Source: Bacillota bacterium (lineage in GTDB: Bacteria > Bacillota > UBA994 > UBA5500). Taken from it: a DNA stretch of 64,000 bases. Where the stretch lies: positions 712,567-776,566 of the forward strand of contig JBMNFB010000001.1 of assembly GCA_050949085.1 (NCBI GenBank), in the 5' to 3' direction. Positions 11,633-45,445 of this stretch are shown one piece after another. Below the pieces are notes generated by a model. That model made no database searches and was not told the DNA's origin. It worked only from the letters and a program-made list of their open reading frames with translations. Every line of letters starts with the position of its first letter. The first letter of the stretch is position 1. The position numbers were made by a program, and so were the translations under genes.

Positions 11633-11995
11633 TCAATCGCACAGCAGCTCCACCTGCCGCACCAGTTCCCAGATATCGAACGGTTTGCGCAGTATCGCGG
11701 CATACTGCTGGCGCGGCGGCAGCGCGTCGTCGTCCAGCATGTCGCCTGTCATCAACACCACGGGGATCTGGCACAACCCAGGCGATTGCTGCATCTTGGC
11801 CAACACACCGCGCCCGTCCAATCCCGGCATGTTCAGGTCCAGCAGTACCACATCCGGGATCTCACCCCCCAGCAAGAGATCAATGCCAGCCTGGCCGTCA
11901 GCCACGCTGCTCACCTGGTGCCCTGCTTCACTCAGCGCCATCTCCAGCACCATCACGATGCCCGGCTCGTTCTCCATAATCAAGACGTTTGCCAT
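11633..11995 (-). CDS. Single-domain response regulator (CheY-like receiver)
   Basis: 120 aa, DLNMPGLDG receiver motif, no output domain. Confidence 0.85.
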   Translation of the reverse strand: MANVLIMENEPGIVMVLEMALSEAGHQVSSVADGQAGIDLLLGGEIPDVVLLDLNMPGLDGRGVLAKMQQSPGLCQIPVVLMTGDMLDDDALPPRQQYAAILRKPFDIWELVRQVELLCD

Positions 11996-12285
11996 CTATA
12001 CTCCTCCTCGCAAGAATCGATTGCTCGCTTCCTATAGTATCACAACAATCTGTCAAATCCTGTCGGTCTGCAGTATCTAGTATCGGCTTTCTTGATTACC
12101 TACAACTTACAGTGTTTTCAGTAGCAGGTATCGGCTTTGCGACCAACTCAAAGGGCGCGTTTCTTTTCTACCCCAGTGGCCTCTCGACACTCATCGACAC
12201 TGTTTTTATTTCTGCCATGCTACAATTGCCTCGTTTGAACTACCTGGCTAGTGACGAGTGGGAAGGAGCATTAGGAGGGAGCAGG

Positions 12286-13833
12286 GTGAGCAGTGAGGCC
12301 GATCAAACCACCTGCGCCAAAGACAGGCGAATCGCCGAGCTGGAGTGGCAGTTGCAGGAGGCTGAAAAAGAGAATCGAGCATTACGCCGAGAGCGCACGT
12401 ACAACCGGGGCCTGATCGAGGCGTCGCTGGACGGGCTGATAACGGTAGACAGTGACCTGATCATTACCGATGTCAACGAGCAGATGTGTCACATGGTCGC
12501 CCGCACCCGCGACCAGTTGATCGGTACTCCGTTTGCCAGCTATTTTGCGGAACCAGAACGTGCGGCCGCGGGGATGCTTTATGCTCTGGAGCAGGGAGCC
12601 ATCAACTACTTTGAACTTGACCTGCCGGATGAGGCTGGCCGGAATCGGCTAGTCTCTCTCAATGCCGCCGTTTTTCGCGACGAAACCGACGCGGTACGTG
12701 GTGTGATTGCCAGCGCGCGGGACATCACGTGGCGCAAGGAGTTCATAGACGCTCTGGAGGCCCGGCGACAACGGCTGGACGGGATCCTTGAACTCCTACC
12801 CACCTATCTGGTTCTCATCACCGAGGACTATCGGCTGAACTATGTCAACCGCACTTTCCGCCAGCTCATCGGTGATGCTCAGGGGCACTGCTGCTGCCAA
12901 TATCTCTATGGGCGGGACAAGCCCTGCGTAGTGTGCGGTGCCACTGAAGTGATGAAGTCGGGTTGCCCTTACGAGTGGGAATGGACGAGCCCGCAGGGTC
13001 AGACCTATCACGTTTTTAACTATCCTTTTGTCGATATCGATGGTTCGCACCTGATTCTCGAAATGGGTATCGACATCACCGAGCGGAAGGCGGCGGAGGA
13101 GGAAATCCAAACCCTGAATCGGGAACTGGAGGCCCGCGTAGCTCAGCGAACGGCCCAGTTGGCACGGGCCAACCAGGAGCTGCACCACAGCGAGGCCAGT
13201 TTGCGCGAAACGCTGCGCGAAAAGGAAATCCTGCTAAACGAAATCCATCACCGCGTAAAAAACAACCTGCAGATTGTCTACAGCATGTTAAATCTGCAGG
13301 CGCTGCATACAGACGATGCACCGGCGCGGGAGGTGCTCAACGAGAGCAAAAACCGCGTCTTTACCATGGCAATGATTCATGAGCAGCTGTTTCAGTCCGA
13401 GTCGCTGGCTGAGATCAACTTGCGCGAGTACATCGAGCGTCTGGTTGCCAACCTCTTCACTTCCTATGGTACTAGCGAGTTTGCGATTCGCTCAGTGCTC
13501 CATGTGGAGGAAGCAGCACTGGACATCAACCACATCATCCCCTGCGCGCTAATCATCAACGAGCTGATCTCCAATGCGCTGAAGCACGCTTTCCCACGAG
13601 GCAGGCTCGCTGATGGCGAAAAGGAGATCTCCCTGGAACTACGACGGGATCCGATTGACACCTACCAGCATGTCCTACGGGTCAGCGACAACGGCATCGG
13701 TCTTCCCCCCGGATTTGACGTTTCGGCCAGCAGGTCCCTGGGGATGCACCTTGTAGACATTCTGGTTCGTCAACTGCGCGGTTCACTCCATGCTGAAACA
13801 GGCTCAGGAACAGTGTTCACAGTGCGCTTCTAG
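12286..13833 (+). CDS. Sensor histidine kinase with two PAS domains and a HisKA_2/HWE-type kinase core; second PAS carries a Cys-rich insert
   Basis: H-box HHRVKNNLQ and HATPase_c SNALKHAF. GTG start after AGGAGGGA (the track ORF begins earlier at 11989). Confidence 0.85.
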   Translation: MSSEADQTTCAKDRRIAELEWQLQEAEKENRALRRERTYNRGLIEASLDGLITVDSDLIITDVNEQMCHMVARTRDQLIGTPFASYFAEPERAAAGMLYALEQGAINYFELDLPDEAGRNRLVSLNAAVFRDETDAVRGVIASARDITWRKEFIDALEARRQRLDGILELLPTYLVLITEDYRLNYVNRTFRQLIGDAQGHCCCQYLYGRDKPCVVCGATEVMKSGCPYEWEWTSPQGQTYHVFNYPFVDIDGSHLILEMGIDITERKAAEEEIQTLNRELEARVAQRTAQLARANQELHHSEASLRETLREKEILLNEIHHRVKNNLQIVYSMLNLQALHTDDAPAREVLNESKNRVFTMAMIHEQLFQSESLAEINLREYIERLVANLFTSYGTSEFAIRSVLHVEEAALDINHIIPCALIINELISNALKHAFPRGRLADGEKEISLELRRDPIDTYQHVLRVSDNGIGLPPGFDVSASRSLGMHLVDILVRQLRGSLHAETGSGTVFTVRF

Positions 13834-13876
13834 CCTAGGGTATCCAAAGGCGATCCATAGTTTGGGGGGGAAAACG

Positions 13877-15496
13877 TTGAGGCAAACGCGTATCCTGATC
13901 GTCGAAGATGAGGCTATCGAGGCGTTGGACCTGGAGCATCGCCTGGATCGCCTCGGTTATCATGTCGAGGGCGTGGCCTTTTCGGGGGAAGAGGCAATCG
14001 GGGCCTTTGAAAAAAGCCAACCTGACCTGGTGCTCATGGACATTATGTTGCGCGGAGAGCTTGATGGCATTGCCACGGTAGAGATCATCCAGAAGCGCTG
14101 GAGAGTCCCCGTGATCTTCATCACCGCCTATGCAGACAGGGCTACCGTCGATCGAGCCAAATTGACCGGTCCCTACGCCTATCTGGTCAAGCCCTTCCGC
14201 GAAAGAGAATTGGAGGTTGCCATCGAGATGGCCCTCTACAAGCATGCCATGGAGCAGAAACTACAGAAAAGCGAGGAGTGGCTGGCCACCACGCTGCGCA
14301 GCATTGGCGATGCTGTGATGGCCACCGATAATCAGGGCCTGATTACCTTCATGAACCCGGTGGCCGAAGAGCTGACAGGGTGGCAGATCAGCGAAGTAAG
14401 GGGCCGTCATCTGGTGGACGTGGTGAAGATCATCAACCAGGTCAGCCGACTCCCGGTGGAAAATCCGGTTGCGCTGGTCTTGCGCGAAAACAGGGTGGTT
14501 GGCCTTGCCAATCACAGTCTGCTGGTCACCCGCGACGGCCGAGAAATACCCATCGACGATAGCGCCGCACCTATCAGGGATAACCAGGGCAGGATAATCG
14601 GCGTCATCCTCGTCTTTCGTGATGTCAGCGAGCGCGTGGAAGCTCAGGCGCAGCTGCAGCGCGCCCACGATGAGTTAGAGAAGCGGGTTCATGAGCGCAC
14701 CGCCGATCTCATGGCGGCGAACGAGCGGCTGCGGCAAGAGATTGTGCAGCGCAAGCGAGCGGAGTCGACGTTGCAGCAGAAGACGAAGGAGTTGGCGGAG
14801 GCCAATCAGGCCAAGGACCGCTTCCTGGCCAGTATGAGCCACGAACTGCGCACGCCGCTGAACGCGATTCTCGGCTTCACTGGGATCCTGCAGATGGGGC
14901 TCTCTGGGCCACTGACGACGGAGCAGGAGCACCATCTGAACTATATCTATATCAGTGCCAGGCAACTGCTGCTGCTAATCGATCAGCTATTGGATCTGGC
15001 CAAGATCCAGTCGGGCAGGGTCGATAAGTTTCCGGCGGAGATCTCCTGTTGTGAACTCCTAACGGAGGTCGGCGGCATGCTGCGGCCATTGGCTACCAGC
15101 AACGATCTGCAGCTGGTGGTAGTTTCACCGGAGCCCGATATCAGGCTGATTAGCGACCGTCGCCTGCTCATGCAGATCCTGCAGAACCTCATCTACAACG
15201 CCATCAAGTTTACTGAACAGGGTGAAGTACGCATCAGTGCCGAGCTGGATAATATTCGTGCCGTCCCCCAAGTAGCCATCAGCGTAGCGGATACCGGTAT
15301 CGGCATTCGAGAGGAAGATCAGCCCGCCCTATTCGAGGCCTTTGCGCGAGTGAGTACGAAAGCGGGACCGGAGGGCACCGGGCTGGGACTACATCTCTGC
15401 AAAAATCTTGCCGATGTGCTAGGGGGAACGATCACAATTGACAGCCAGTATGGCAAGGGCAGTGTCTTTACACTCCTTCTGCCGCTCAATGGCTAG
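13877..15496 (+). CDS. Hybrid sensor kinase: N-terminal receiver, PAS, HisKA, HATPase_c
   Basis: REC (ILIVEDE...DLVLMD), PAS, H-box SMSHELRTPLN, G-box GTGLGL. TTG start after a G-rich ribosome-binding site. Confidence 0.85.
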   Translation: MRQTRILIVEDEAIEALDLEHRLDRLGYHVEGVAFSGEEAIGAFEKSQPDLVLMDIMLRGELDGIATVEIIQKRWRVPVIFITAYADRATVDRAKLTGPYAYLVKPFRERELEVAIEMALYKHAMEQKLQKSEEWLATTLRSIGDAVMATDNQGLITFMNPVAEELTGWQISEVRGRHLVDVVKIINQVSRLPVENPVALVLRENRVVGLANHSLLVTRDGREIPIDDSAAPIRDNQGRIIGVILVFRDVSERVEAQAQLQRAHDELEKRVHERTADLMAANERLRQEIVQRKRAESTLQQKTKELAEANQAKDRFLASMSHELRTPLNAILGFTGILQMGLSGPLTTEQEHHLNYIYISARQLLLLIDQLLDLAKIQSGRVDKFPAEISCCELLTEVGGMLRPLATSNDLQLVVVSPEPDIRLISDRRLLMQILQNLIYNAIKFTEQGEVRISAELDNIRAVPQVAISVADTGIGIREEDQPALFEAFARVSTKAGPEGTGLGLHLCKNLADVLGGTITIDSQYGKGSVFTLLLPLNG

Positions 15497-15510
15497 GGGG
15501 GCACTAAAGA

Positions 15511-15918
15511 TTGACTATGCGGGTTTTGGTAGTTGAAGACAACAAGATAAATCTGGAATTGATCACATACTTGCTCAAGAAGGCTGGCTTCGATGTCTTG
15601 CAGGCAAAAACGGGCGCAGAAGCCATGCGTCTGGCAAGAAAGAGGCAGCTCGATCTGATCGTCTCTGACGTACTCCTACCCGACATCTGCGGCTGCGATC
15701 TGGCTCGCCGCCTGAGAGGTGACCACCGATCTCGTCAGATTCCCCTGGTGGCAGTGACAGCATTGGCCATGGTCGGTGATCGAGAGCGCATAATGGAAGC
15801 AGGTTTCGACGCCTACATCAGCAAGCCGATCGATCCTCGCTGCTTCCTCGAGCAAATCAACAGCCTGGTAGAATCCTTAGAAAGGGGCAACCTCAATGGC
15901 TACTATTTTGGTCGTTGA
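15511..15918 (+). CDS. Single-domain response regulator (receiver)
   Basis: 135 aa, VLVVEDN...DLIVSD receiver; overlaps the next gene by 23 nt. Confidence 0.85.
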   Translation: MTMRVLVVEDNKINLELITYLLKKAGFDVLQAKTGAEAMRLARKRQLDLIVSDVLLPDICGCDLARRLRGDHRSRQIPLVAVTALAMVGDRERIMEAGFDAYISKPIDPRCFLEQINSLVESLERGNLNGYYFGR

Positions 15919-18064
15919 AGACCACGCCATGAGTCGAGAGATTCTCAGCACCCTGCTGGGATCGGTGGGCCATGTGGTGAAGGAGGCCACGGAGGCAATG
16001 GAGGCGCTGGCCTTGGCCAGGGAAACGCATCCTCAGCTAATTGTCTGTGATGTTCTCCTGCCGACCATCGACGGCATCGAGTTCGTGCGCCGCCTGCGTC
16101 GTGAAGAGCAGTTCGCTGATACGCCAGTGATCTTCTACACAGCCGCCTTTCGCCACCCTGAGGGACTTGACGTGGAGGAAACCTGCCAGCCATACCGCCT
16201 GCTAACGAAGCCGTCAGATCCTCGGCTCATCCTGAACACTGTGGACGACATGCTGTCCAATGGTCGGTGGAGCCATGCCCCGATCCAACTCACCGAGCAG
16301 GCTCGCCAGTTCCTCTCGCTGCCCCACAATAGCGGCCTGCAGTTGCCGGTGCTGCTCGATCTCAGCCTGAGCCTGATTTCGCAACGTGACCCGAGACGAT
16401 TGCTGCAGATTGTGGTTCGTGCCCTGCGGGCAATGCTCAACTGTCGACACGCGCAGCTCTGTATCCTCGATCCTGATGGGGCAGGATCGGGTTACTCCCA
16501 GGAGAGAATCAAGTACGCGGTTGCTGATGGAGATAACTGGGTGCCGCCCACCTGGATCCTGGATCAGGTGATGTCGGATGTCGCTCCATTCCGTGGGCAG
16601 GCTGATGCCGTCGACACTCCCGATCAACCCTGGCCCCCCTGTAGGTCACTGCTAGTCGTTCCCTTCGATACCGCATCCAGAGTCTATGGCTGGATCTGTC
16701 TGGCCGACAAGCGAGGATCGAAGGGGTTCTCGGAGATCGATCAGGAGATAGCGGAAACGGTGGGGAGAGAGGCCGCGCTCGGATACGAAAACATCCTGCT
16801 CGTAGAGGAGCTAAAGCGCAACGAGGAACATCTGGAGAAGCTGGTGGCTACCCGCACGGCCGAACTCGCCCGAGCCAATCAGGAGTTGCACAGGGCCCAG
16901 AAGCTCGAGTCGCTTGGAGTCCTGGCGGGCGGTATCGCCCATGATTTCAACAACAACCTGACCGTAATCCTCAACCTGATTCAGATTGCCAGGCTCAAGT
17001 CGGATCCGGTGAGCCCAGTCCATCGCTACCTGGGACAGGCAGAGAAGGCCTGCCATGAAGCCAAAGCACTGACTGAACAACTGCTGACGTTTGCCAGGGG
17101 CGGCAGCCCAATGCTTAAGCCTGTCCACTTGCCCGATCTACTCCCGGACGCAGTCAACTTCGCTCTGCGCGGCTCCAACTCGGTCAGTCAATTCATCCTG
17201 CCTCCCGACCTGTGGCCGGTGGAAGCCGATCAGGGACAGATAGGCCAGGTCATTCATAATCTCGTCACCAACGCCTGGCAGGCAATGCCTGATGGCGGCT
17301 TGATTCATGTTCTAGCCAACAACATCATCCTCGAGGAGGATAGCCCGCTCAACCTCAGCCCCGGTAGGTATGTCAAGATATCTGTGATCGATGAGGGGGT
17401 GGGCATCCCGGCAGAGAACCTGAACAAGGTTTTCGATCCCTATTTCACCACCCGGGACACAGGTAATGGTCTGGGCCTGGCCACCGCCTACTCCATCGTC
17501 CAGAAGCATGAGGGGCGCCTGACAGTGGAATCCCGTCTGGGCGGAGGTACAGCCTTCCACATCTACCTGCCGGCCACCAGCAAGCAGCCGTCTCCTTCAG
17601 AATCCGCCGCAGACGTGCCCCTGACCACCGGGCGGATCCTGCTGGTCGACGATCAGGAGGCTATAGCTGCCTCGCTGGCAGAACTGCTGCAGCACCACGG
17701 CTATGCCACCGATGTTGCCCTGGATGGCACTCAGGGCATCCGCCTCTATCAAAACGCCCTGGAGAGCGACCAGCCCTACGATGCGGTCATCACCGACCTG
17801 ACGATTCCTGGAGGAATGGGCGGCAAGGAGATGATCAGGCGCTTGATCAAGCTCTGCCCGACTGTAAAGGCCATCGTCGCCAGCGGGTACTCCAACGACC
17901 CGGTGCTGGCGCAACCCGAGGAATATGGGTTTTGCGGCGCCATCGCCAAGCCGTACCGCATCGAGGACGTTATGGCTGAGCTGTCTCGAGTTATCTCCAG
18001 CGAAAACGCAGGGCGGGCTCAGAACTGGTCATGTGAGCAATCGCAGGCAACTGCCGCAGAGTGA
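15896..18064 (+). CDS. Hybrid histidine kinase: REC, GAF, HisKA, HATPase_c, REC
   Basis: N-terminal and C-terminal receiver domains, H-box AHDFNNNLTVI, HATPase_c G-boxes; 722 aa. Confidence 0.85.
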   Translation: MATILVVEDHAMSREILSTLLGSVGHVVKEATEAMEALALARETHPQLIVCDVLLPTIDGIEFVRRLRREEQFADTPVIFYTAAFRHPEGLDVEETCQPYRLLTKPSDPRLILNTVDDMLSNGRWSHAPIQLTEQARQFLSLPHNSGLQLPVLLDLSLSLISQRDPRRLLQIVVRALRAMLNCRHAQLCILDPDGAGSGYSQERIKYAVADGDNWVPPTWILDQVMSDVAPFRGQADAVDTPDQPWPPCRSLLVVPFDTASRVYGWICLADKRGSKGFSEIDQEIAETVGREAALGYENILLVEELKRNEEHLEKLVATRTAELARANQELHRAQKLESLGVLAGGIAHDFNNNLTVILNLIQIARLKSDPVSPVHRYLGQAEKACHEAKALTEQLLTFARGGSPMLKPVHLPDLLPDAVNFALRGSNSVSQFILPPDLWPVEADQGQIGQVIHNLVTNAWQAMPDGGLIHVLANNIILEEDSPLNLSPGRYVKISVIDEGVGIPAENLNKVFDPYFTTRDTGNGLGLATAYSIVQKHEGRLTVESRLGGGTAFHIYLPATSKQPSPSESAADVPLTTGRILLVDDQEAIAASLAELLQHHGYATDVALDGTQGIRLYQNALESDQPYDAVITDLTIPGGMGGKEMIRRLIKLCPTVKAIVASGYSNDPVLAQPEEYGFCGAIAKPYRIEDVMAELSRVISSENAGRAQNWSCEQSQATAAE

Positions 18065-29829: not shown

Positions 29830-31854
29830 TCACTGCCCACGCATCATGCGCGCAAAGGCAGCGACGATCTCCGGATCAAATCTGGTGCCGGATTGGCTTT
29901 CAATCTCGCGTAGAGCCTCTTCCTCACTCATCGGTTCGGTGCCTCCAGGCGGACGAATGCGGCGCGAGAATACCCCAACTACGGCAACGGCCCGGGCCAG
30001 CCAGGGGATCGCCTCCCCCCGCAAGCCCCGAGGATAACCACTTCCATCCCAGTTCTCGTGGTGATAGAACACAGCATCAGCCAGATCCACCGTCTCGTCA
30101 AAGAGTTTCAGGATTCGGTAGCCGGCGATGACATGCCGCCGCGCTTCCTGTTTCGACTCATCATCCAGGTCTTCACTGGGGCCCAAGAGGTGGTCGTCCA
30201 GAACCACCTTGCCGATATCGTGGAGGTAACCTAGCTCCCGCAAGCGACGGAGTTCCCGTTCGGGAAGGTTCATGGCTTCACCCAACCGCTGACAGAGACG
30301 GCTGACCAGCTCGGAGTGCTCTTTCTCCCCCACCGACTTCTCATGTAAAGAACTGATAATCGTTTCGATCAGGCCCCGGTTGATAGCCTCCCGTTCCATC
30401 GTCTTCTGCAGGTACATCCTGCGCTCGGCGCAGTCGTAGACGGCCGCCAGGTCTTGGTCGGTAGTCGACTTGCTGGCGCTGCCGATGGAAATGCTACCCC
30501 GCACAGCCTTGACCTGCTCCTTGGCAAACTCCTCCTGGATCTGGGCTGCCAGTCGGCGGGCTTCCTCCAGGTCTGTTCCTGAGAGGATGATGGCAAACTC
30601 ATCACCGCCGGTGCGGGCGATGACTGCCTGCTCGCCACAGACCCGGCGCAGGACGCTGGCGGCCTTGATCAGGAGCAGATCGCCTGCCGCATGGCCGAAC
30701 ACATCGTTGGTCAGTTTCAGGCCATTCATATCAGCCACCAGCATCGAAACGGGGATTGTCTGATTCTGCCGCAGCAGCTCCGCCTCAAAAAATCTGCGGT
30801 TATAGAGACCGGTGAGCGAATCGTGATAGCTGAGATAGAGCAGCTCCTCTTCGTGCTGGGCCAGGGCCTCGTAGGCTTGCTGCAGCTCAATCTGCTGCTC
30901 CCGCTTTTCTTTGGCCGTCCACACCCCAGTCATCAGCAACGTCAGCTGCTGCACGTCGTCCGTGTCGTAGGGAGCGGCCTTGTTGGCCAGGCCAACCACG
31001 GCGACAATCTCATCATTGATGACCACCGGGATGCTCATAAACCTCTTGAGCGGTATATGCCCCTCTGGATACCCCTTCTTCCAGTCAGCGTGCGACTCGT
31101 AGTCGTTGATGATCAACGGCCTGCGCTGCCGCACTACCTCGCCCCAGAGGCCGATCTGGCTGAGAGCGTTCATGGACGGCACACTGTCTATCCTGCACTC
31201 TGCCAAAGTCTCGGCCGACCAGGTGTTCACTTCGAACTCCTCAGTGGCTTCATCATAGAAAAAGATGTAGCCGAACCTGCTCTCGGTCATTTCAACGGCT
31301 TTGGAGAGGACAAAGTCCAACTGTTCCCGGGTTGACTCAAATTGCTGGGAAAAGACATCGATCAGGATCGAATAGCGCAGCAGCGTCTTTTGCTCACGTT
31401 GACGCCGGATTCTCTCCTCAGTGATATCCTGGACAACCGCTCCGACTGCGGGGCCCAATCCAGGCAGTTCGAGCGGGAGTTTGATGGCGCGGAAAGTTCG
31501 GTCCTTGATCTGCTGCTCGGCGACCAGAACCGACCCACTTGCCAGCGTCTCCAAATCACTTGCCTTGTCATGATTTGCCCAATCAGCGGCAAGCACGGAA
31601 GTTGCCTCCTGCCCCAGCAACTCGGAGCGCGACTTCCCGATGGCGCGCTCGAGAGCCCGGTTTACCAGCCGATACCTCTGATCCGCCGTCTTGATATAGA
31701 TCAGCCGATCGTCTGCATCCATGAGAGCCTGGTAGACCTTCTGCAGCGCTGCCACTTCCCCGGTCTTTGCCCGATATCGGTAACACAATACCAGCAAGAG
31801 AATCAGGAGTGACAGAGCCGCTACCCAGGGAACAAATATCGATTGCTCGCCCAT
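29830..31854 (-). CDS. c-di-GMP protein: membrane anchor, PAS, GAF, GGDEF, HD-GYP
   Basis: GGDEF (RTGGDEFAIIL), HD-GYP (HDIGK ... HHENWDGSGYP). Confidence 0.85.
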   Translation of the reverse strand: MGEQSIFVPWVAALSLLILLLVLCYRYRAKTGEVAALQKVYQALMDADDRLIYIKTADQRYRLVNRALERAIGKSRSELLGQEATSVLAADWANHDKASDLETLASGSVLVAEQQIKDRTFRAIKLPLELPGLGPAVGAVVQDITEERIRRQREQKTLLRYSILIDVFSQQFESTREQLDFVLSKAVEMTESRFGYIFFYDEATEEFEVNTWSAETLAECRIDSVPSMNALSQIGLWGEVVRQRRPLIINDYESHADWKKGYPEGHIPLKRFMSIPVVINDEIVAVVGLANKAAPYDTDDVQQLTLLMTGVWTAKEKREQQIELQQAYEALAQHEEELLYLSYHDSLTGLYNRRFFEAELLRQNQTIPVSMLVADMNGLKLTNDVFGHAAGDLLLIKAASVLRRVCGEQAVIARTGGDEFAIILSGTDLEEARRLAAQIQEEFAKEQVKAVRGSISIGSASKSTTDQDLAAVYDCAERRMYLQKTMEREAINRGLIETIISSLHEKSVGEKEHSELVSRLCQRLGEAMNLPERELRRLRELGYLHDIGKVVLDDHLLGPSEDLDDESKQEARRHVIAGYRILKLFDETVDLADAVFYHHENWDGSGYPRGLRGEAIPWLARAVAVVGVFSRRIRPPGGTEPMSEEEALREIESQSGTRFDPEIVAAFARMMRGQ

Positions 31855-32011
31855 CTGACTTGATCACCTCATCCAAAATCCAGAGCCGCAATAGCGAATT
31901 ACTTGTAGAAAGATTATGTATCAAGCAAGAAGTCAAACCAGACGTCACCATTATACACGACTCGTGCAAAATTGCACCAATTAACTGGGCAATTCGAGAT
32001 GTTAGGCCAAA

Positions 32012-33661
32012 TCATTGACCTGAGGTATTGTCAGCACGCATTAGCGCTAAGAAGGCATCTACAACCGCGGGATCAAACTTCCGGCCGGCCTGCTTGGCTA
32101 TCTCTTGCACCGCATCCGGTTCGCTGTACAGCGCCGACGGCTCCGCGCAGCACGTCAGGTCAACGAAATTGTCTGCCACGGCAATGATGCGGGCAAGCAA
32201 GGGGATCTCCTCACCACGTAAGCCTTTCGGCAAACCAGAGCCGTCCCAGCTTTCTTCGTGATACAGGACGGCTTCGGCTATGTCCGCCGTCTCCTCAAAT
32301 AACTGCAGGATCCGATAACCAACCGTAACATGCTGCGTAGCCGCCAGCTGATCTATGTCCACGAGACGCCCGGCCTTCAGCAGCTGCTCGCTGAGAACGA
32401 TCTTGCCTATATCATGCAGATAGCCCGCATCCCTCAGCCTGCGGACATCGTCTTCCCCCAGGTGCAGGATGTACCCCAGCCGCTCACATAGCTGACTTAC
32501 TCGCTGCGAATGTTCCTTCAGCAGGGGAACTCGCTGATGCAGCGTATCAATTATGCTCCCGATCAGCTCAGCATTGGTAACTGAGCGCTGCAGCGTCTTC
32601 TGCAGGTACATCTCGCTCTCCGCGTCGCGGAATACAGCAGCCATTTCCTGAGCTGGCTCGGTCTTAGAGGCAACACCCAGTGAGATGCTGCCCCTGATGG
32701 CCATCACTTTCTCGCGGGCGACGTCTTCCTGGATCTTGATGGCCAGCTGGCGAGCTTCATCCAGCCCGGTCCCGGGCAAGATCAGGGCAAATTCGTCTCC
32801 ACCGATGCGGGCGGCGAGAGCATGCTCTCGACAGACCCGCCTGAAGACCTCACCAACCTTGCGGATCAGCTCATCTCCTGCCGCATGTCCAAACACATCG
32901 TTGGTAAGCTTCAAGCCGTTCACATCGGCCAGAATCAGCGACACAGGAAACTCGTTCTCCATGTTCTGCAACCCGGCCTCGAAGGAGGACCGATTGTACA
33001 ACCCGGTTACTGGATCATGGAGGCTGAGGTACTTGATCTGAGCTTCCGCCTGCTTCCGTTCAGTGATATCGGTAAAACTGACGACACCACCGACGACTTT
33101 CCCGTCCACTAGCTGCGGATACGAGGCGTATTCTACGTCAAAGTGACTGCCGTCCGCCCGCCAGAAAACCTCATCATCTACTCTAGCACCCGTTCCTGTA
33201 AGCAGGGTCTGGTAGATGCTGCATTCTTCGAGGGGCATAGGCGTACCATCCCGCCGACTGTGATGAATCAGTGAATGGACCTGCTTACCTATCAGCTGGG
33301 CGGCGTCTGCGTATCCCAGCATCCGCAGGAAGCTGGCATTGCAGAATGTGCATCGCCCATCCACGTCTACACCGAAAATCGCCTCGGCCGTTGAATCGAG
33401 GATCAGCTGCAGCTTCGCTTCATGCTCAGCCAGCCGCTGGTTGGCCTGCTCTAACTCGGCTCCCCTCTGCCGAGTCTCTCCTCTGCTGGCCATCAACTCC
33501 TTGAGGCTTCGGGTCAGCATGAAAAGAGCTGCGGCCAGAATAAACAGTAGCCCACCCAGGGCCGCATGGAAGAAGTGCATCACCTCTTCGGAAACGGTGA
33601 TCAATGCAAAGAATAGCAGGCTCCCCAAGAAAGCAGGAACCAGGACTAGATACTTTTTCAT
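32012..33661 (-). CDS. c-di-GMP protein: TM anchor, PAS, GGDEF, HD-GYP (tandem paralog of the upstream gene)
   Basis: RIGGDEFALIL GGDEF; HDIGK ... YHEESWDGSGLP HD-GYP. Start taken at MKKYLVLV. Confidence 0.85.
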   Translation of the reverse strand: MKKYLVLVPAFLGSLLFFALITVSEEVMHFFHAALGGLLFILAAALFMLTRSLKELMASRGETRQRGAELEQANQRLAEHEAKLQLILDSTAEAIFGVDVDGRCTFCNASFLRMLGYADAAQLIGKQVHSLIHHSRRDGTPMPLEECSIYQTLLTGTGARVDDEVFWRADGSHFDVEYASYPQLVDGKVVGGVVSFTDITERKQAEAQIKYLSLHDPVTGLYNRSSFEAGLQNMENEFPVSLILADVNGLKLTNDVFGHAAGDELIRKVGEVFRRVCREHALAARIGGDEFALILPGTGLDEARQLAIKIQEDVAREKVMAIRGSISLGVASKTEPAQEMAAVFRDAESEMYLQKTLQRSVTNAELIGSIIDTLHQRVPLLKEHSQRVSQLCERLGYILHLGEDDVRRLRDAGYLHDIGKIVLSEQLLKAGRLVDIDQLAATQHVTVGYRILQLFEETADIAEAVLYHEESWDGSGLPKGLRGEEIPLLARIIAVADNFVDLTCCAEPSALYSEPDAVQEIAKQAGRKFDPAVVDAFLALMRADNTSGQ

Positions 33662-33744
33662 GGCTCCCCCCAATCACGTCGTGAAGACCGGACCTTAGGT
33701 TCCGTAATCAGTGTTGACCAGAGTGAGGCCCGGCCCCCTGTGCG

Positions 33745-36012
33745 CTAGCCTGCTGGTCGGTTATGGCTGTTGACCAGAGCCAGAACTTCGGACTCTGGCA
33801 AGGGTCTGCTGAGCAGATAGCCCTGCATGTAGTTGCAGTGGTGCTGTCGCAGGTACTGGAGCTGCTGTTCCACCTCGACACCTTCGGCAACCACATACTT
33901 GCCCAGGCGATGCGCCATGGCCGTAATGTCACCGAGTAGCAGCTGATCCGGCTCGCTGGTCAACACGCTGTCAACAAACGCCTTGTCAATCTTGATGCCG
34001 TTGACATGCAGGTTGCCGATACGCGCATAGGAGGAATAGCCGGTTCCGTAGTCATCGATGACCACATGGATACCCTGCTCGGTCAGTTCGCGAAGCCGCT
34101 GGTTAATGGGGCCATATTCATCCAGCATCAATGATTCGGTGATCTCGATGACCAGGTTGTGCGGGTTGACTCCAGTCTCTTCGACGATCTGCAGCAAGTC
34201 GGTAACAAACCCGTCTACCAGCAGCTGCGCAATGGAGATATTCACCGAAACCTTGAGGCAGCCGCCATAATCTGCCTCGAGACGGTGCAGGAAGCGGCAG
34301 GCAAGGCGCAGGATCTCCTGTCCCAGGGGGATGATCAAGCGGGTCCGCTCGGCAATAGGGATAAACTCCAGGGGCGAAATTGCTCCCAGCTCATCGCTAT
34401 GCACACGAGCCAGAGCCTCCAGGGCCACGATTCGGTTGCTGTGCAACTCGACAATCGGCTGGTAGACCAGATAGAGGCGACTATCTCCCTGACCGCTGAG
34501 AATCTCCTGCAGCTTCTGCTCGATCAGCTCTTGACGCAGGAAGCTTTCTTCCATGGCCCGATCGAAGAAGCGATATCCAGACTGGCTCTGGCGGGCGGCA
34601 TCGGCGGCGATGGCTGCCTGCCTGATCAGCTGATCGGCGTCACGCTGAGATTCGCCGTTGAACTCGACGACGCCGATGCCCACATTAGCATTGACGGCAG
34701 GCATCGGTCCATTGGCACAACTGAGAATCTGGTCGGCGATGGAAACCAGATCAGCCTGATGCTGATAGGATTCAACCAGAATCAAGAAACGCCCCAAGCC
34801 CAGATAGAAAAGCGGATGACACTGCCCCACAGACTGGCACAGGCTGGTAGAGCAGTGCCTCGCCAGATCGTTGCCGTACTGCAGGCTAAAAGTCTGGCTC
34901 AACCGCAGCGCTTGATTATCCACCAGCAGGATTGCGCGCTTCTTCTGCCCTCGCTCACGTTCGCGCCTGGCAGCGTCTACAAACTCGGCCAACTGCAGCT
35001 GGTTAGGCAAACCTGTCACCGGGTCGAAATAAGAGCGGTAGACTAGCTCGCGGTCCTTCTGGTAGTTGAGATGTACGACGCCCAACGCGATGATCGCCCC
35101 GCCAGCGAGAATGCCGCTAGCAACCAGGTTCACCCGGTGGATCATCTGGCTGGCGCTGGCCAAGGAATAGGTCATGCTCAGGGTTCCAATCTTCTGTCCT
35201 TCAACAGAGATCGGCAACAGGACCTGATAGACGTGTTCTCCGTCGTGGACAGTTCGTTCCGCATATTCCTGATCAGCCAGGATCGCCGCCTTGGCCTCAT
35301 CGGAGAGCCACTCGTCCGAGATTCCTGGATGCGAGGAACTGGCAACTAACTGCATGTCGTTGTTCAGAAAGCTGATGCAGTGGATGAAGTCCGTCTGCGC
35401 CATCTCTTTCAACAGGTACTCAACCTCAAAATGCCCCAGAAACTGCTGGACGGTCTCAGCCCGAACACCGACCTGAACAAACCCGCCGTCCTCGTGCTGG
35501 AAATACGCATATTTGTAGTAGGTATCAGACTCGGTGTCCCTGCGGATTTCCTCCACGTGCTGGGTGGCTCCACTCTGCATGAAGTCATAGACGGGGTGGC
35601 CCGGGAGGGCTTTCCAGCCTTTGTACAGCTCGTTGGTGCAGATGATCTCCCCAGCGGCGTTGTAGTAGAAGATCTGGTCAACCTGCAGCGAATTGGCCAG
35701 TCGAGCCAGGAATTCGTCACATATCCCAGTGTCCTGTGGCACAGAGTTGAGCACCATCGAGCCGGCAGCCGTCAGCTTCTCCACCAGCAGAGCATCGATC
35801 AGCTCGGTGGCCTCCGCCGATCTGGAAAGCGACTGCGCATAGCCAGTGGCCAAACGATATGACTCATCGCGCGCCCTTCGATACGCGAAACCGCGTATCG
35901 CCTCGCCCACCAGGAAGAGCGACGCAAGTGCTGCCAGCAAGATCAGAGTTACAGGTAACAGATAATCTTTCCAGGTTATTTGCCTGGGACCGAATCTATG
36001 GGTCAACTCCAA
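33745..36012 (-). CDS. Membrane sensor protein with periplasmic sensor domain, GGDEF-like domain and EAL domain
   Basis: EAL-domain motifs (EALARV..., DDYGTGYSS); TTG start suggested after a G-rich ribosome-binding site. Confidence 0.75.
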   Translation of the reverse strand: MELTHRFGPRQITWKDYLLPVTLILLAALASLFLVGEAIRGFAYRRARDESYRLATGYAQSLSRSAEATELIDALLVEKLTAAGSMVLNSVPQDTGICDEFLARLANSLQVDQIFYYNAAGEIICTNELYKGWKALPGHPVYDFMQSGATQHVEEIRRDTESDTYYKYAYFQHEDGGFVQVGVRAETVQQFLGHFEVEYLLKEMAQTDFIHCISFLNNDMQLVASSSHPGISDEWLSDEAKAAILADQEYAERTVHDGEHVYQVLLPISVEGQKIGTLSMTYSLASASQMIHRVNLVASGILAGGAIIALGVVHLNYQKDRELVYRSYFDPVTGLPNQLQLAEFVDAARRERERGQKKRAILLVDNQALRLSQTFSLQYGNDLARHCSTSLCQSVGQCHPLFYLGLGRFLILVESYQHQADLVSIADQILSCANGPMPAVNANVGIGVVEFNGESQRDADQLIRQAAIAADAARQSQSGYRFFDRAMEESFLRQELIEQKLQEILSGQGDSRLYLVYQPIVELHSNRIVALEALARVHSDELGAISPLEFIPIAERTRLIIPLGQEILRLACRFLHRLEADYGGCLKVSVNISIAQLLVDGFVTDLLQIVEETGVNPHNLVIEITESLMLDEYGPINQRLRELTEQGIHVVIDDYGTGYSSYARIGNLHVNGIKIDKAFVDSVLTSEPDQLLLGDITAMAHRLGKYVVAEGVEVEQQLQYLRQHHCNYMQGYLLSRPLPESEVLALVNSHNRPAG

Positions 36013-36282
36013 CCCCCCCCCAGAGGTGCAGTAGATGACAGAGTCTATATAGATTTGGTCTATTCTCCGTAATCGTAACAATTCCTGCTAGCGATTGCAC
36101 TGAATTTGCCCAATCGAGGTAACTGACACCATAGTAAGACGGCGAAGATCGGACAGGCGTCGACACCGTAATGGCTGGCGGATCGAAGTCCGGCGAAATA
36201 TGCGGGGGCGAGAGAGGAAAACTAATACGGAACGCGAATAATCTATAGCTAGAGAGCATTAAGAGAGGGGGCGTCTCCTATA

Positions 36283-45070: not shown

Positions 45071-45445
45071 TCAGTTGCTGACATCAACGCCATCAGCCCA
45101 GTCTGACTTTTTCCGGGGCAGGAAGATGTGCGCTTTCGCCGCATGTTCTTCGTCCAGCGGAATGCTCATATAGAAGAAAGTGTGCTCTTCAGACTCAATA
45201 CAGCCCATATTGGGCTTTCCCTCCTTAATGCTCCTCTGCACCGGGCAGTTGGCGTGAACCTCGCCAAAGCCGGCCGCCTGGAAACAGGGTACGCCGGTGC
45301 TCTCCCCTCCCTGATTGAACTCATCGGCAAACCTCTGATTGTGCCAGACAACCTCGAACTGGCGGTTGACGATCATCACCGAGAGGAACGGCGAATTGAC
45401 CAGTTCCTTCCCCAGCTTCTCCTGCAAGGCTTCAAGACTAACCAT
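45071..45445 (-). CDS. Hypothetical protein (124 aa)
   Basis: ORF of coding-like composition with no recognised motif. Confidence 0.35.
   Translation of the reverse strand: MVSLEALQEKLGKELVNSPFLSVMIVNRQFEVVWHNQRFADEFNQGGESTGVPCFQAAGFGEVHANCPVQRSIKEGKPNMGCIESEEHTFFYMSIPLDEEHAAKAHIFLPRKKSDWADGVDVSN

Follow-up and report, generated by a model that had tools for sequence, protein, structure and literature searches.

A widespread three-cysteine PAS domain in a Bacillota sensor histidine kinase, a candidate thiolate-metal or redox site

Cysteine-ligated PAS sensors and the kinase under study

Two PAS sensors whose iron-sulfur (Fe-S) clusters have cysteine ligands are the closest described counterparts of the site considered here, which lies in a sensor histidine kinase encoded on a 64,000-nucleotide stretch of DNA from a Bacillota bacterium (GenBank assembly GCA_050949085.1, contig JBMNFB010000001.1, positions 712,567 to 776,566 of the forward strand; the whole of this stretch is referred to as the window). 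The first is OrpR, the σ54 activator DVU2106 of D. vulgaris Hildenborough, in which the PAS cysteines C52, C61 and C65, with a conserved Asp or Glu at position 54, are associated with a redox-sensitive [4Fe-4S]2+ cluster, and in which the triple cysteine mutant is insensitive to redox potential (PMC8359166). The second is the kinase NreB, a [4Fe-4S] O2 sensor in Staphylococcus carnosus and a [2Fe-2S] sulfide sensor in Bacillus licheniformis; in the latter the cluster is held by C63, C66, C78 and a labile sulfur ligand, as seen at 1.52 Å (PMC13478379; PDB 9WEX). NreB is the sole entry under Fe-S cofactors in a 2023 census of PAS domains. Outside the PAS domains, FhuF carries a [2Fe-2S] cluster on the motif C-C-x10-C-x2-C (PDB 7QP5; bioRxiv 10.1101/2023.07.04.547673).

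The kinase of the window has two PAS domains, PAS1 and PAS2, and it is in PAS2 that its cysteines are concentrated. Six of them (C202, C203, C204, C214, C217 and C227) fall within 26 residues, the first three encoded by consecutive TGC codons at 12889-12897, and the remainder of the kinase has three. The original prediction, which singled out the peptide GDAQGHCCCQYLYGRDKPCVVCGATEVMKSGCPYEW (residues 196-231, window 12871-12978), had counted seven within about 35 residues, one more than the codons give. With a Cys frequency of 1.37%, taken from the long reading frames of the window, the probability of at least six Cys in 26 residues is 1.2e-6 per position, such that about 0.03 stretches of this kind are expected in the window, and every other 26-residue stretch in the window holds at most four. 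Thus, the cysteine-dense segment is real and beyond chance. The features of this region are the following, the family to which the entries refer being described below.

12286..13833, + strand: sensor histidine kinase, 515 residues (open reading frame table, Shine-Dalgarno-preceded GTG start, Pfam domains)
12733..13089, + strand: PAS2, residues 150-268, assigned to the C-x10-C-x2-C subfamily, with the N-cap helix and DIT(E)RK exit motif included
12889..12966, + strand: cysteine-rich segment C202-C227, whose 26 residues contain six Cys and extend over helices Eα and Fα, the loop joining them and the Fα-Gβ loop (codons read, AlphaFold2 model)
12889..12891, + strand: C202, a non-conserved extra Cys that creates the C-C-x10-C-x2-C spacing (Cys in 26 of 435 copies)
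12892..12894, + strand: C203, first invariant Cys, N-terminus of helix Eα (Cys in 99-100% of family copies; YtvA profile alignment)
12895..12897, + strand: C204 (TGC), Cys/Tyr strain-polymorphic, adjoining the invariant C203 (cluster comparison; Cys in 0 of 435 family copies)
12925..12927, + strand: C214, second invariant Cys, Eα-Fα loop, the residue before it being Pro in 90% of the family (family column statistics)
12934..12936, + strand: C217, third invariant Cys, directly before helix Fα in a CxxC knuckle (AlphaFold2 model, family column statistics)
12964..12966, + strand: C227, an extra Cys specific to the lineage, located in the Fα-Gβ loop and two residues ahead of Y229 (0 of 435 copies; AlphaFold2 model)

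A three-cysteine PAS family

An exhaustive phmmer search with PAS2 against 1.84 billion cluster representatives (50%-identity clusters) matched 7313 proteins at E<=1e-3, of which 2965 passed E<=1e-10 and 654 passed E<=1e-30. The matches span the whole of PAS2 at 37-57% identity, and the matched proteins typically carry two to four copies of the domain, with nine in one protein and whole-protein E values down to 4.8e-95 in multi-copy proteins. A word-index homologue search with PAS2 returned no match, though the identical protein is in the collection that was searched. Domain copies from the phmmer hits were pooled with those from 80 GTDB species-genome loci and 80 metagenome loci, giving 531 distinct PAS hits that cover the Cys segment; the peptide patterns on which the scans relied bias the taxonomic sample, and the copy counts are not phylogenetically independent.

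All three of C203, C214 and C217, which occupy family positions 51, 62 and 65 of a C-x10-C-x2-C signature, are present in 435 of the 531 copies, and none of the three is present in 50 copies, which represent other PAS types in the same proteins. A sister type with a C..C arrangement accounts for 37 copies, and any other combination at the triad columns for nine. Because this pattern is bimodal, the triad is kept or lost as a unit across the family. By its sequence, PAS2 is a clear member of this C-x10-C-x2-C PAS subfamily (a name given in this analysis, shortened below to Cys3), which is very large and so far uncharacterised. The family consensus reads FGES.GRRCYEYLFGR.EPCE.CE.Y.VLKTG.PH.WEW...DG....D.PF.D.DGS.L.LEMGIDITERK, with the DIT(E)RK exit motif well conserved (D in 97% and T in 95% of copies).

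The remaining three cysteines of the segment behave differently. At the column of C202 (family position 50) Cys is found in 26 of the 435 triad-bearing copies (6%), the usual residue being Arg, Lys or His, and at the columns of C204 (position 52, usually Tyr, Phe or His) and C227 (position 75, usually Ala, Lys or Gln) it is found in none of them. The members of the kinase's 90% cluster all share more than 98.6% identity, and of the eight that cover the site, five have Tyr204 and three have Cys. Tyr is the family consensus residue here, and one transition separates it from TGC. C204 is thus a strain polymorphism, and is almost certainly non-functional. As C202, C204 and C227 are not conserved, the triple-cysteine appearance is largely lineage noise over a three-cysteine family signature. 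The original prediction had made conservation of the cysteines its own criterion, and the outcome is divided: C203, C214 and C217 are invariant in the 435 copies, and the other three are not conserved; its description of the segment as atypical for PAS domains was overstated, the Cys3 type being very common in public data.

The closest relatives outside the species, 50-54% identical, come from metagenome-assembled genomes (MAGs), one of Dethiobacteria, one of Bacillota and one unclassified, and in each of them the triad alone is present. No orthologue of 60-95% identity was found in the GTDB species genomes, where the best match is 53-54% identical, and the JGI metagenomes yielded fragments of 97-99% identity followed by matches of 54% or less, with none between. 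According to the record titles, about 20 of the 80 genome loci belong to Methanoregula and its relatives and about 18 of the 80 to sulfate-reducing or syntrophic lineages. Methanoregula-type methanogens, sulfate reducers and syntrophs are anaerobic in their physiology. The output domains found in 63 scanned family proteins (HisKA in 26, HisKA_3 in 12, HisKA_2 in three, SpoIIE in three and a receiver in ten) are as varied as expected for a portable sensor cassette, and all 63 of these proteins match Pfam PAS_4.

The 37 copies of the sister type (for instance, residues 42-165 of P0086 and 1133-1256 of P0114, and also L058 and L066) have a motif of their own, G..C[YF]..VHG...PP.FCPH...L.DG.EH..EVHE, with two Cys and four or five conserved His, including a Cys-Pro-His. 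This type often resides in the same proteins as Cys3 domains, and its motif looks like another uncharacterised metal- or heme-binding signature.

The cysteines in the PAS fold

An AlphaFold2 model of PAS2 was built on a 51-sequence alignment, drawn from short proteins of a profile search of which no other use was made. The model (in which residue numbers are those of the protein minus 149) has a predicted local distance difference test (pLDDT) score of 95.6 and a predicted template modelling (pTM) score of 0.82, as compared to a pLDDT of 44 for a single-sequence run. Its elements follow in the order N-cap helix, Aβ, Bβ, Cα, Eα (model residues 54-59), a loop, Fα (69-76), Gβ, Hβ, Iβ and a C-terminal helix. 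C202-C204 are placed where Eα begins, C214 and C217 in the loop entering Fα, and C227 in the Fα-Gβ loop.

The model and its comparison with known structures indicate a canonical PAS fold of normal length and element order, with a five-stranded antiparallel β-sheet between the Cα-Fα helices that flank it. Foldseek matched it to short LOV proteins, DosP, FixL and other PAS domains with a probability of 1.0, template modelling (TM) scores of about 0.7 and about 20% identity, and the family profile aligns with the LOV domain of YtvA without a gap through the Cys segment, C203 falling on the photoactive LOV cysteine. A single-sequence search of the PDB with PAS2 gave chance immunoglobulin matches only, a profile search gave generic PAS and LOV matches only (E>=0.011), and no solved structure of the C-x10-C-x2-C subfamily was found in the PDB sequence and Foldseek searches. 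The segment had been proposed to be an insert inside the second PAS domain. It does sit in that domain, but since the length and topology of PAS2 are those of an ordinary PAS domain and the alignment with YtvA is ungapped, the insert reading is rejected. Rather, the cysteines are modelled as decorating the ordinary Eα-Fα side of the domain, on which cofactors are held in LOV, FixL and other PAS domains.

The best structural matches, the LOV domains of YtvA, PpSB1-LOV and YF1, share with PAS2 the N-cap and C-terminal helices, a DIT-type exit motif leading into a kinase-driving coiled coil, and a cysteine on Eα to which the first invariant Cys aligns. They lack the two further invariant Cys of the Cys3 family. 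LOV membership was rejected, as the flavin-binding motif is missing from PAS2.

An iron-sulfur reading of the site

The invariance of the triad and its loss as a set argue for a joint metal, Fe-S or redox site. The reading that we favour, at close to but short of an even chance, is that the triad ligates a redox-labile Fe-S cluster in the pocket of PAS2 with one coordination position open or exchangeable, and that this cluster controls the kinase. Several observations lead to this reading: both characterised three-Cys PAS domains bind Fe-S clusters, OrpR and the family share an acidic residue two positions after the first Cys, strictly anaerobic lineages weigh heavily among the genome hits, and the domain is a portable module found on many outputs (HisKA, HisKA_3, HisKA_2 and SpoIIE). 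The metal, Fe-S or redox-sensing site put forward in the original prediction is hence sustained for the triad, by its invariance and joint loss and by the precedents of OrpR and NreB, though not for the three cysteines that are not conserved.

OrpR, like the Cys3 family, is a cytoplasmic PAS sensor with exactly three conserved cysteines, a single one followed by a close pair, and is found in anaerobes. Its D/E54 stands at +2 of the first Cys, where 86% of Cys3 copies have Glu or Asp and the window kinase has Gln. The spacing is C-x8-C-x3-C in OrpR as opposed to C-x10-C-x2-C here (beyond the PAS fold, the comparison is made from the published description), and the output of OrpR is an AAA+ σ54 activator, whereas the window protein is a histidine kinase. 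NreB resembles the window protein in being a cytoplasmic histidine kinase of Bacillota with a PAS domain, which in NreB holds an Fe-S cluster, and the three Cys and exchangeable non-protein ligand of the B. licheniformis protein parallel the three invariant Cys without a fixed fourth ligand in the Cys3 family. However, the order of the cysteines is reversed in NreB (C63-x2-C66-x11-C78), its kinase is of the HisKA_3 type, and its PAS domain is described as having two helices only, in contrast to the full Cα-Fα complement of the PAS2 model. Membership of the NreB type was rejected, a single Cys preceding the CxxC in PAS2 as opposed to the C-x2-C-x11-C(-x2-C) of NreB, and no NreB sequence was among the matches of the PDB sequence searches. 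The spacing of FhuF equals that of C202-C203-x10-C214-x2-C217 in the window kinase, but FhuF is an unrelated ferredoxin-like loop domain in a ferric-siderophore reductase, an enzyme and not a sensor. The match is a motif coincidence and not a sign of membership, with C202 conserved in only 6% of copies; FhuF membership was likewise rejected because PAS2 has a PAS fold, and not the FhuF C-terminal 'ferredoxin' fold or family.

Under the favoured Fe-S reading, the thiolates of C203, C214 and C217 would hold either an OrpR-like [4Fe-4S] cluster, one iron of which is open or has a non-Cys ligand, or a [2Fe-2S] cluster whose fourth ligand is exchangeable, on the model of B. licheniformis NreB. If the cluster were oxidised or lost, or its ligand exchanged, Eα and Fα would re-pack against the β-sheet. 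The change would pass along the DIT(E)RK exit motif, then along the helical linker of residues 265-318, and so reach the HisKA_2 dimerisation and histidine phosphotransfer (DHp) domain. There, autophosphorylation of H322 would be switched, and the kinase would then feed the adjacent receiver or receivers. The path from PAS2 to H322 is suggested by analogy with LOV kinases such as YF1. Metal binding, the Fe-S identity of the cofactor, the sensed signal, the path of transmission and the partner regulator are all parts of this scheme that we infer.

A number of points weigh against the Fe-S reading. The spacing is unlike that of OrpR (x8/x3), and the order unlike that of NreB, where the CxxC comes first. 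Zinc sites, too, typically have a CxxC knuckle ahead of a helix and a His such as the one at position 77 in 63% of copies. A protein with as many as nine of these domains would require many clusters, some of the hits come from lineages that include aerobes (Terriglobia, Gemmatimonadaceae and Planctomycetes), and the window kinase itself lacks both the Glu or Asp at +2 (Q205) and the His at position 77 (Y229). In addition, literature searches found no paper on the C-x10-C-x2-C motif in PAS domains.

The fourth ligand

The candidates for a fourth ligand most often present are the Glu or Asp at position 53 and a His at position 77 or, in 36% of copies, at position 78. These are not obligatory, as neither E/D53 nor H77 is present in 41 of the 435 copies, of which 30 also lack a fourth Cys in the 41-residue motif segment. 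These 30 copies, having no fourth candidate, fit an open or exogenous fourth ligand better than a structural Cys4 or Cys3His zinc site. The defining site, as read from the family alignment, is one of three thiolates and a variable or non-protein fourth position.

Extra cysteines recur at position 24 (V173 of the query, in strand Aβ) in 28% of copies, at position 55 (L206 of the query, forming C-x3-C with the first triad Cys) in 13%, and at position 50 in 6%, and separate clades may have recruited separate fourth ligands. Among members without E/D53 and H77, such cysteines show no enrichment (odds ratio 0.95, p=1.0). A ligand swap, with C204 standing in for E53 and C227 for H77, is unsupported, given the absence of this enrichment and the polymorphism of C204 with Tyr. 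Because the window kinase has neither the Glu or Asp at +2 nor the nearby His of most family members, C202 or C227 might serve as its fourth ligand, an idea to which the family statistics lend no support.

Alternative explanations

The alternative that survives best is that the triad, with a His, water or other residue, binds Zn(II), either as a structural pin of the Eα-Fα loop that replaces an organic cofactor or as a redox switch of the RsrA/Hsp33 kind that releases zinc on thiol oxidation. We consider this unlikely, though the strongest of the alternatives. In the AlphaFold2 model, a CxxC directly before a helix and a remote Cys form a common zinc-knuckle layout, the frequent His at positions 77 and 78 would provide a ligand, and the weak relative found elsewhere in the window exchanges the middle Cys for His (C...H-x2-C), by which a metal ligand is retained. 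Multi-copy proteins would also be easier to load with zinc than with Fe-S clusters, and the family is present in lineages that are not strictly anaerobic. On the other hand, structural zinc sites usually keep four protein ligands, and here there is no conserved fourth, with 30 of the 435 copies lacking any candidate. Moreover, the two characterised three-Cys PAS domains both bind Fe-S, and no Cys-ligated zinc PAS domain turned up in literature searches. To our knowledge, none has been described. The known zinc-binding PAS domain, that of WalK, is reported to ligate its metal through His, Asp and Glu.

A metal-free thiol/disulfide switch, in which C214-x2-C217 would form the redox pair with C203 possibly resolving, or in which a persulfide or nitrosyl modification would report the cytoplasmic redox state, seems improbable. 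A CxxC is the classic redox pair, ArcB-type PAS kinases use Cys oxidation, and a switch of this type would tolerate the extra variable cysteines of the window kinase. Such a switch needs two cysteines, however, and the family has three that are invariant and jointly lost, while the sister subfamily and the small window ORF (open reading frame) pair the loss of Cys with a gain of His, which points to metal ligation and away from disulfide chemistry.

There is also a special case of the Fe-S reading, confined to the window kinase, in which C202, C203, C214 and C217 would all ligate a [2Fe-2S] cluster in the manner of FhuF. The identical C-C-x10-C-x2-C spacing, the absence from this kinase of the usual E/D(+2) and H77, and the recurrence of Cys at position 50 in 6% of family copies speak for it. 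Nonetheless, we regard it as having little chance of being right: the FhuF cluster loop belongs to a different fold, the PDB sequence searches, at E<=10 or E<=1, gave no match to a FhuF chain, copies missing E/D53 and H77 show no enrichment of extra Cys, and no orthologue of intermediate distance was found by which the conservation of C202 could be gauged.

Finally, a covalent organic cofactor on one Cys (a LOV-like flavin adduct, a c-type heme or a bilin), with the remaining cysteines incidental, is very improbable: C203 does align with the photoactive Cys of YtvA, LOV domains are the best Foldseek matches and a few family members have a CxxCH-like string, C-P-W-C-H, but the LOV motif G-x-N-C-R-F-L-Q is replaced by GHCCCQYLYG, of which only the Cys aligns, LOV identity is only about 20%, CxxCH is rare in the family, and a single anchor leaves three invariant cysteines unexplained. 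A c-type heme PAS was rejected separately, since C214-V-V-C217 is followed by Gly and not by the His of C-x-x-C-H.

The kinase gene and its domains

The + strand reading frame, according to the open reading frame table, is open across 11989-13833, and an AGGAGG lies 8 nucleotides upstream of the GTG start at 12286, giving a product of 515 residues that ends at 13833. The identical 515-residue gene call, with the same neighbours, is found in two independent Logan assemblies (L081 and L082), and NCBI MGI6344122.1 ('MAG: sensor histidine kinase [Bacillota bacterium]') is an identical 515-residue sequence, encoded on a 1.31-Mb contig. In the JGI calls the kinase has 573 residues, the start being placed 58 codons upstream (VFSVAGIGF..., window 12112-12285), and the extension, which is without a domain match, looks like an over-call; NCBI and Logan start at GTG 12286.

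The kinase is ordered as a coiled-coil N-terminus, PAS1, PAS2 (the three-Cys type), a coiled-coil linker, HisKA_2 and HATPase_c, the N-terminus being one that looks like a coiled coil from its sequence. Domain analysis reported no signal peptide or membrane domain, and the protein is taken to be a soluble cytoplasmic PAS-PAS-HisKA_2-HATPase protein of a Bacillota MAG. The features outside PAS2 are as follows.

12406..12738, + strand: PAS1, residues 41-151, a generic PAS domain without the Cys motif (Pfam PAS_4 2.5e-17, PAS_9 2.8e-16, PAS 1.8e-13; TIGR00229 1.1e-17)
13078..13239, + strand: helical linker, residues 265-318, joining the DITERK motif of PAS2 to the DHp domain (AlphaFold2 helix from model residue 116 runs on past PAS2)
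13240..13467, + strand: HisKA_2 dimerisation and phospho-acceptor domain, residues 319-394 (Pfam HisKA_2 3.8e-28)
13249-13251, + strand: predicted phospho-His H322 in EIHHRVKNN (codon read)
13546..13830, + strand: HATPase_c catalytic domain, residues 421-515 (Pfam 1.1e-10)

Pfam PAS_4 matches two stretches of the kinase, the second more weakly, and only the PAS1 stretch is itemised; PAS2 alone scores 21.9 against TIGR00229, for which the cut-off is 22.9. The linker helix is presumed to be unbroken as far as the DHp domain. HisKA_2 (PF07568) matches at 97.8 bits against a cut-off of 22.3, and EIHHRVKNN holds the H-R-x-K-N box known from HisKA_2/HWE kinases, from which we take H322 to be the phospho-acceptor. 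The protein had been described as an HWE-type kinase, a label that is only loosely right: HWE_HK matches at only 27.1 bits and is outscored by HisKA_2. The W-x-E motif of strict HWE kinases is absent, because residues 421-515 of the ATPase domain contain no Trp. The kinase core shares a family-level match to the NCBIfam models for PhyK and for blue-light (LOV-HK) kinases, themselves HisKA_2/HWE kinases, but its equivalog scores are far under the cut-offs (for PhyK, 135 against 750 bits), and the sensor domains differ.

Neighbouring genes and other loci in the window

The kinase gene is flanked by further genes for signalling proteins.

11633..11995, - strand: divergent single-domain response regulator, candidate partner (Pfam Response_reg 1.2e-15; same neighbour in L081 and L082)
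13790..15496, + strand: REC-PAS-HisKA-HATPase hybrid kinase (REC, receiver), its start overlapping the end of the kinase gene by 44 nucleotides
15511-15918, + strand: single-domain receiver
15896-18064, + strand: REC-GAF-HisKA-HATPase-REC hybrid kinase, overlapping the preceding receiver by 23 nucleotides

Adjacency points to the receiver at 11633..11995 as a putative partner of the kinase. The 44-nucleotide overlap makes it probable that the kinase gene and the 13790..15496 hybrid kinase share an operon, and the REC domain of the latter product is a second candidate output partner. Together, the five clustered signalling genes from 11633 to 18064 suggest a multi-kinase phosphorelay.

Two further loci in the window encode weak matches to the Cys3 profile. 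A stand-alone ORF of 124 residues at 45071-45445 on the - strand matches at E=3.9e-6, and its segment GVPCFQAAGFGEVHANCPVQ...GC has His in place of the middle triad Cys (C...H-x2-C). The product could be a small relative of a single domain, with a Cys2His site. Three consecutive cyclic di-GMP (c-di-GMP) genes at 29830-36081 on the - strand encode GAF-GGDEF-HD-GYP, PAS-GGDEF-HD-GYP and GGDEF-EAL proteins; the PAS domain of the second is the other weak match, and the triad is absent from it.

Implications

In its most far-reaching form, the Fe-S reading would make the Cys3 PAS domain a distinct and widespread Fe-S or thiolate-metal module with three protein ligands and an open fourth site, used for general sensing of O2, redox state, NO or sulfide in the cytoplasm of methanogens, sulfate reducers, syntrophs, Bacillota and many other phyla, often stacked within a kinase, and the window kinase would be a FhuF-like, all-Cys variant of it; this is a tentative proposal, and one that we would lean against as a whole.

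The window kinase is in itself a modest finding, an ordinary member of its family, most of whose extra cysteines look incidental. Among cytoplasmic sensor modules, PAS domains are the most common, and the signal of most of them is not known. The documented Cys-ligated Fe-S PAS sensors are NreB and OrpR only, and the Cys3 subfamily, recognisable by a simple sequence signature, is far larger, comprising hundreds or thousands of 50%-identity clusters from archaea and many bacterial phyla, often in multiple copies. Its interest lies in the size of this uncharacterised subfamily and in the directness with which the site can be tested by mutants, with a confident structural model to guide them. Should Fe-S or zinc-thiolate binding prove true, orphan regulators of anoxic environments in their thousands, kinases and phosphatases among them, could be given a signal class at once.

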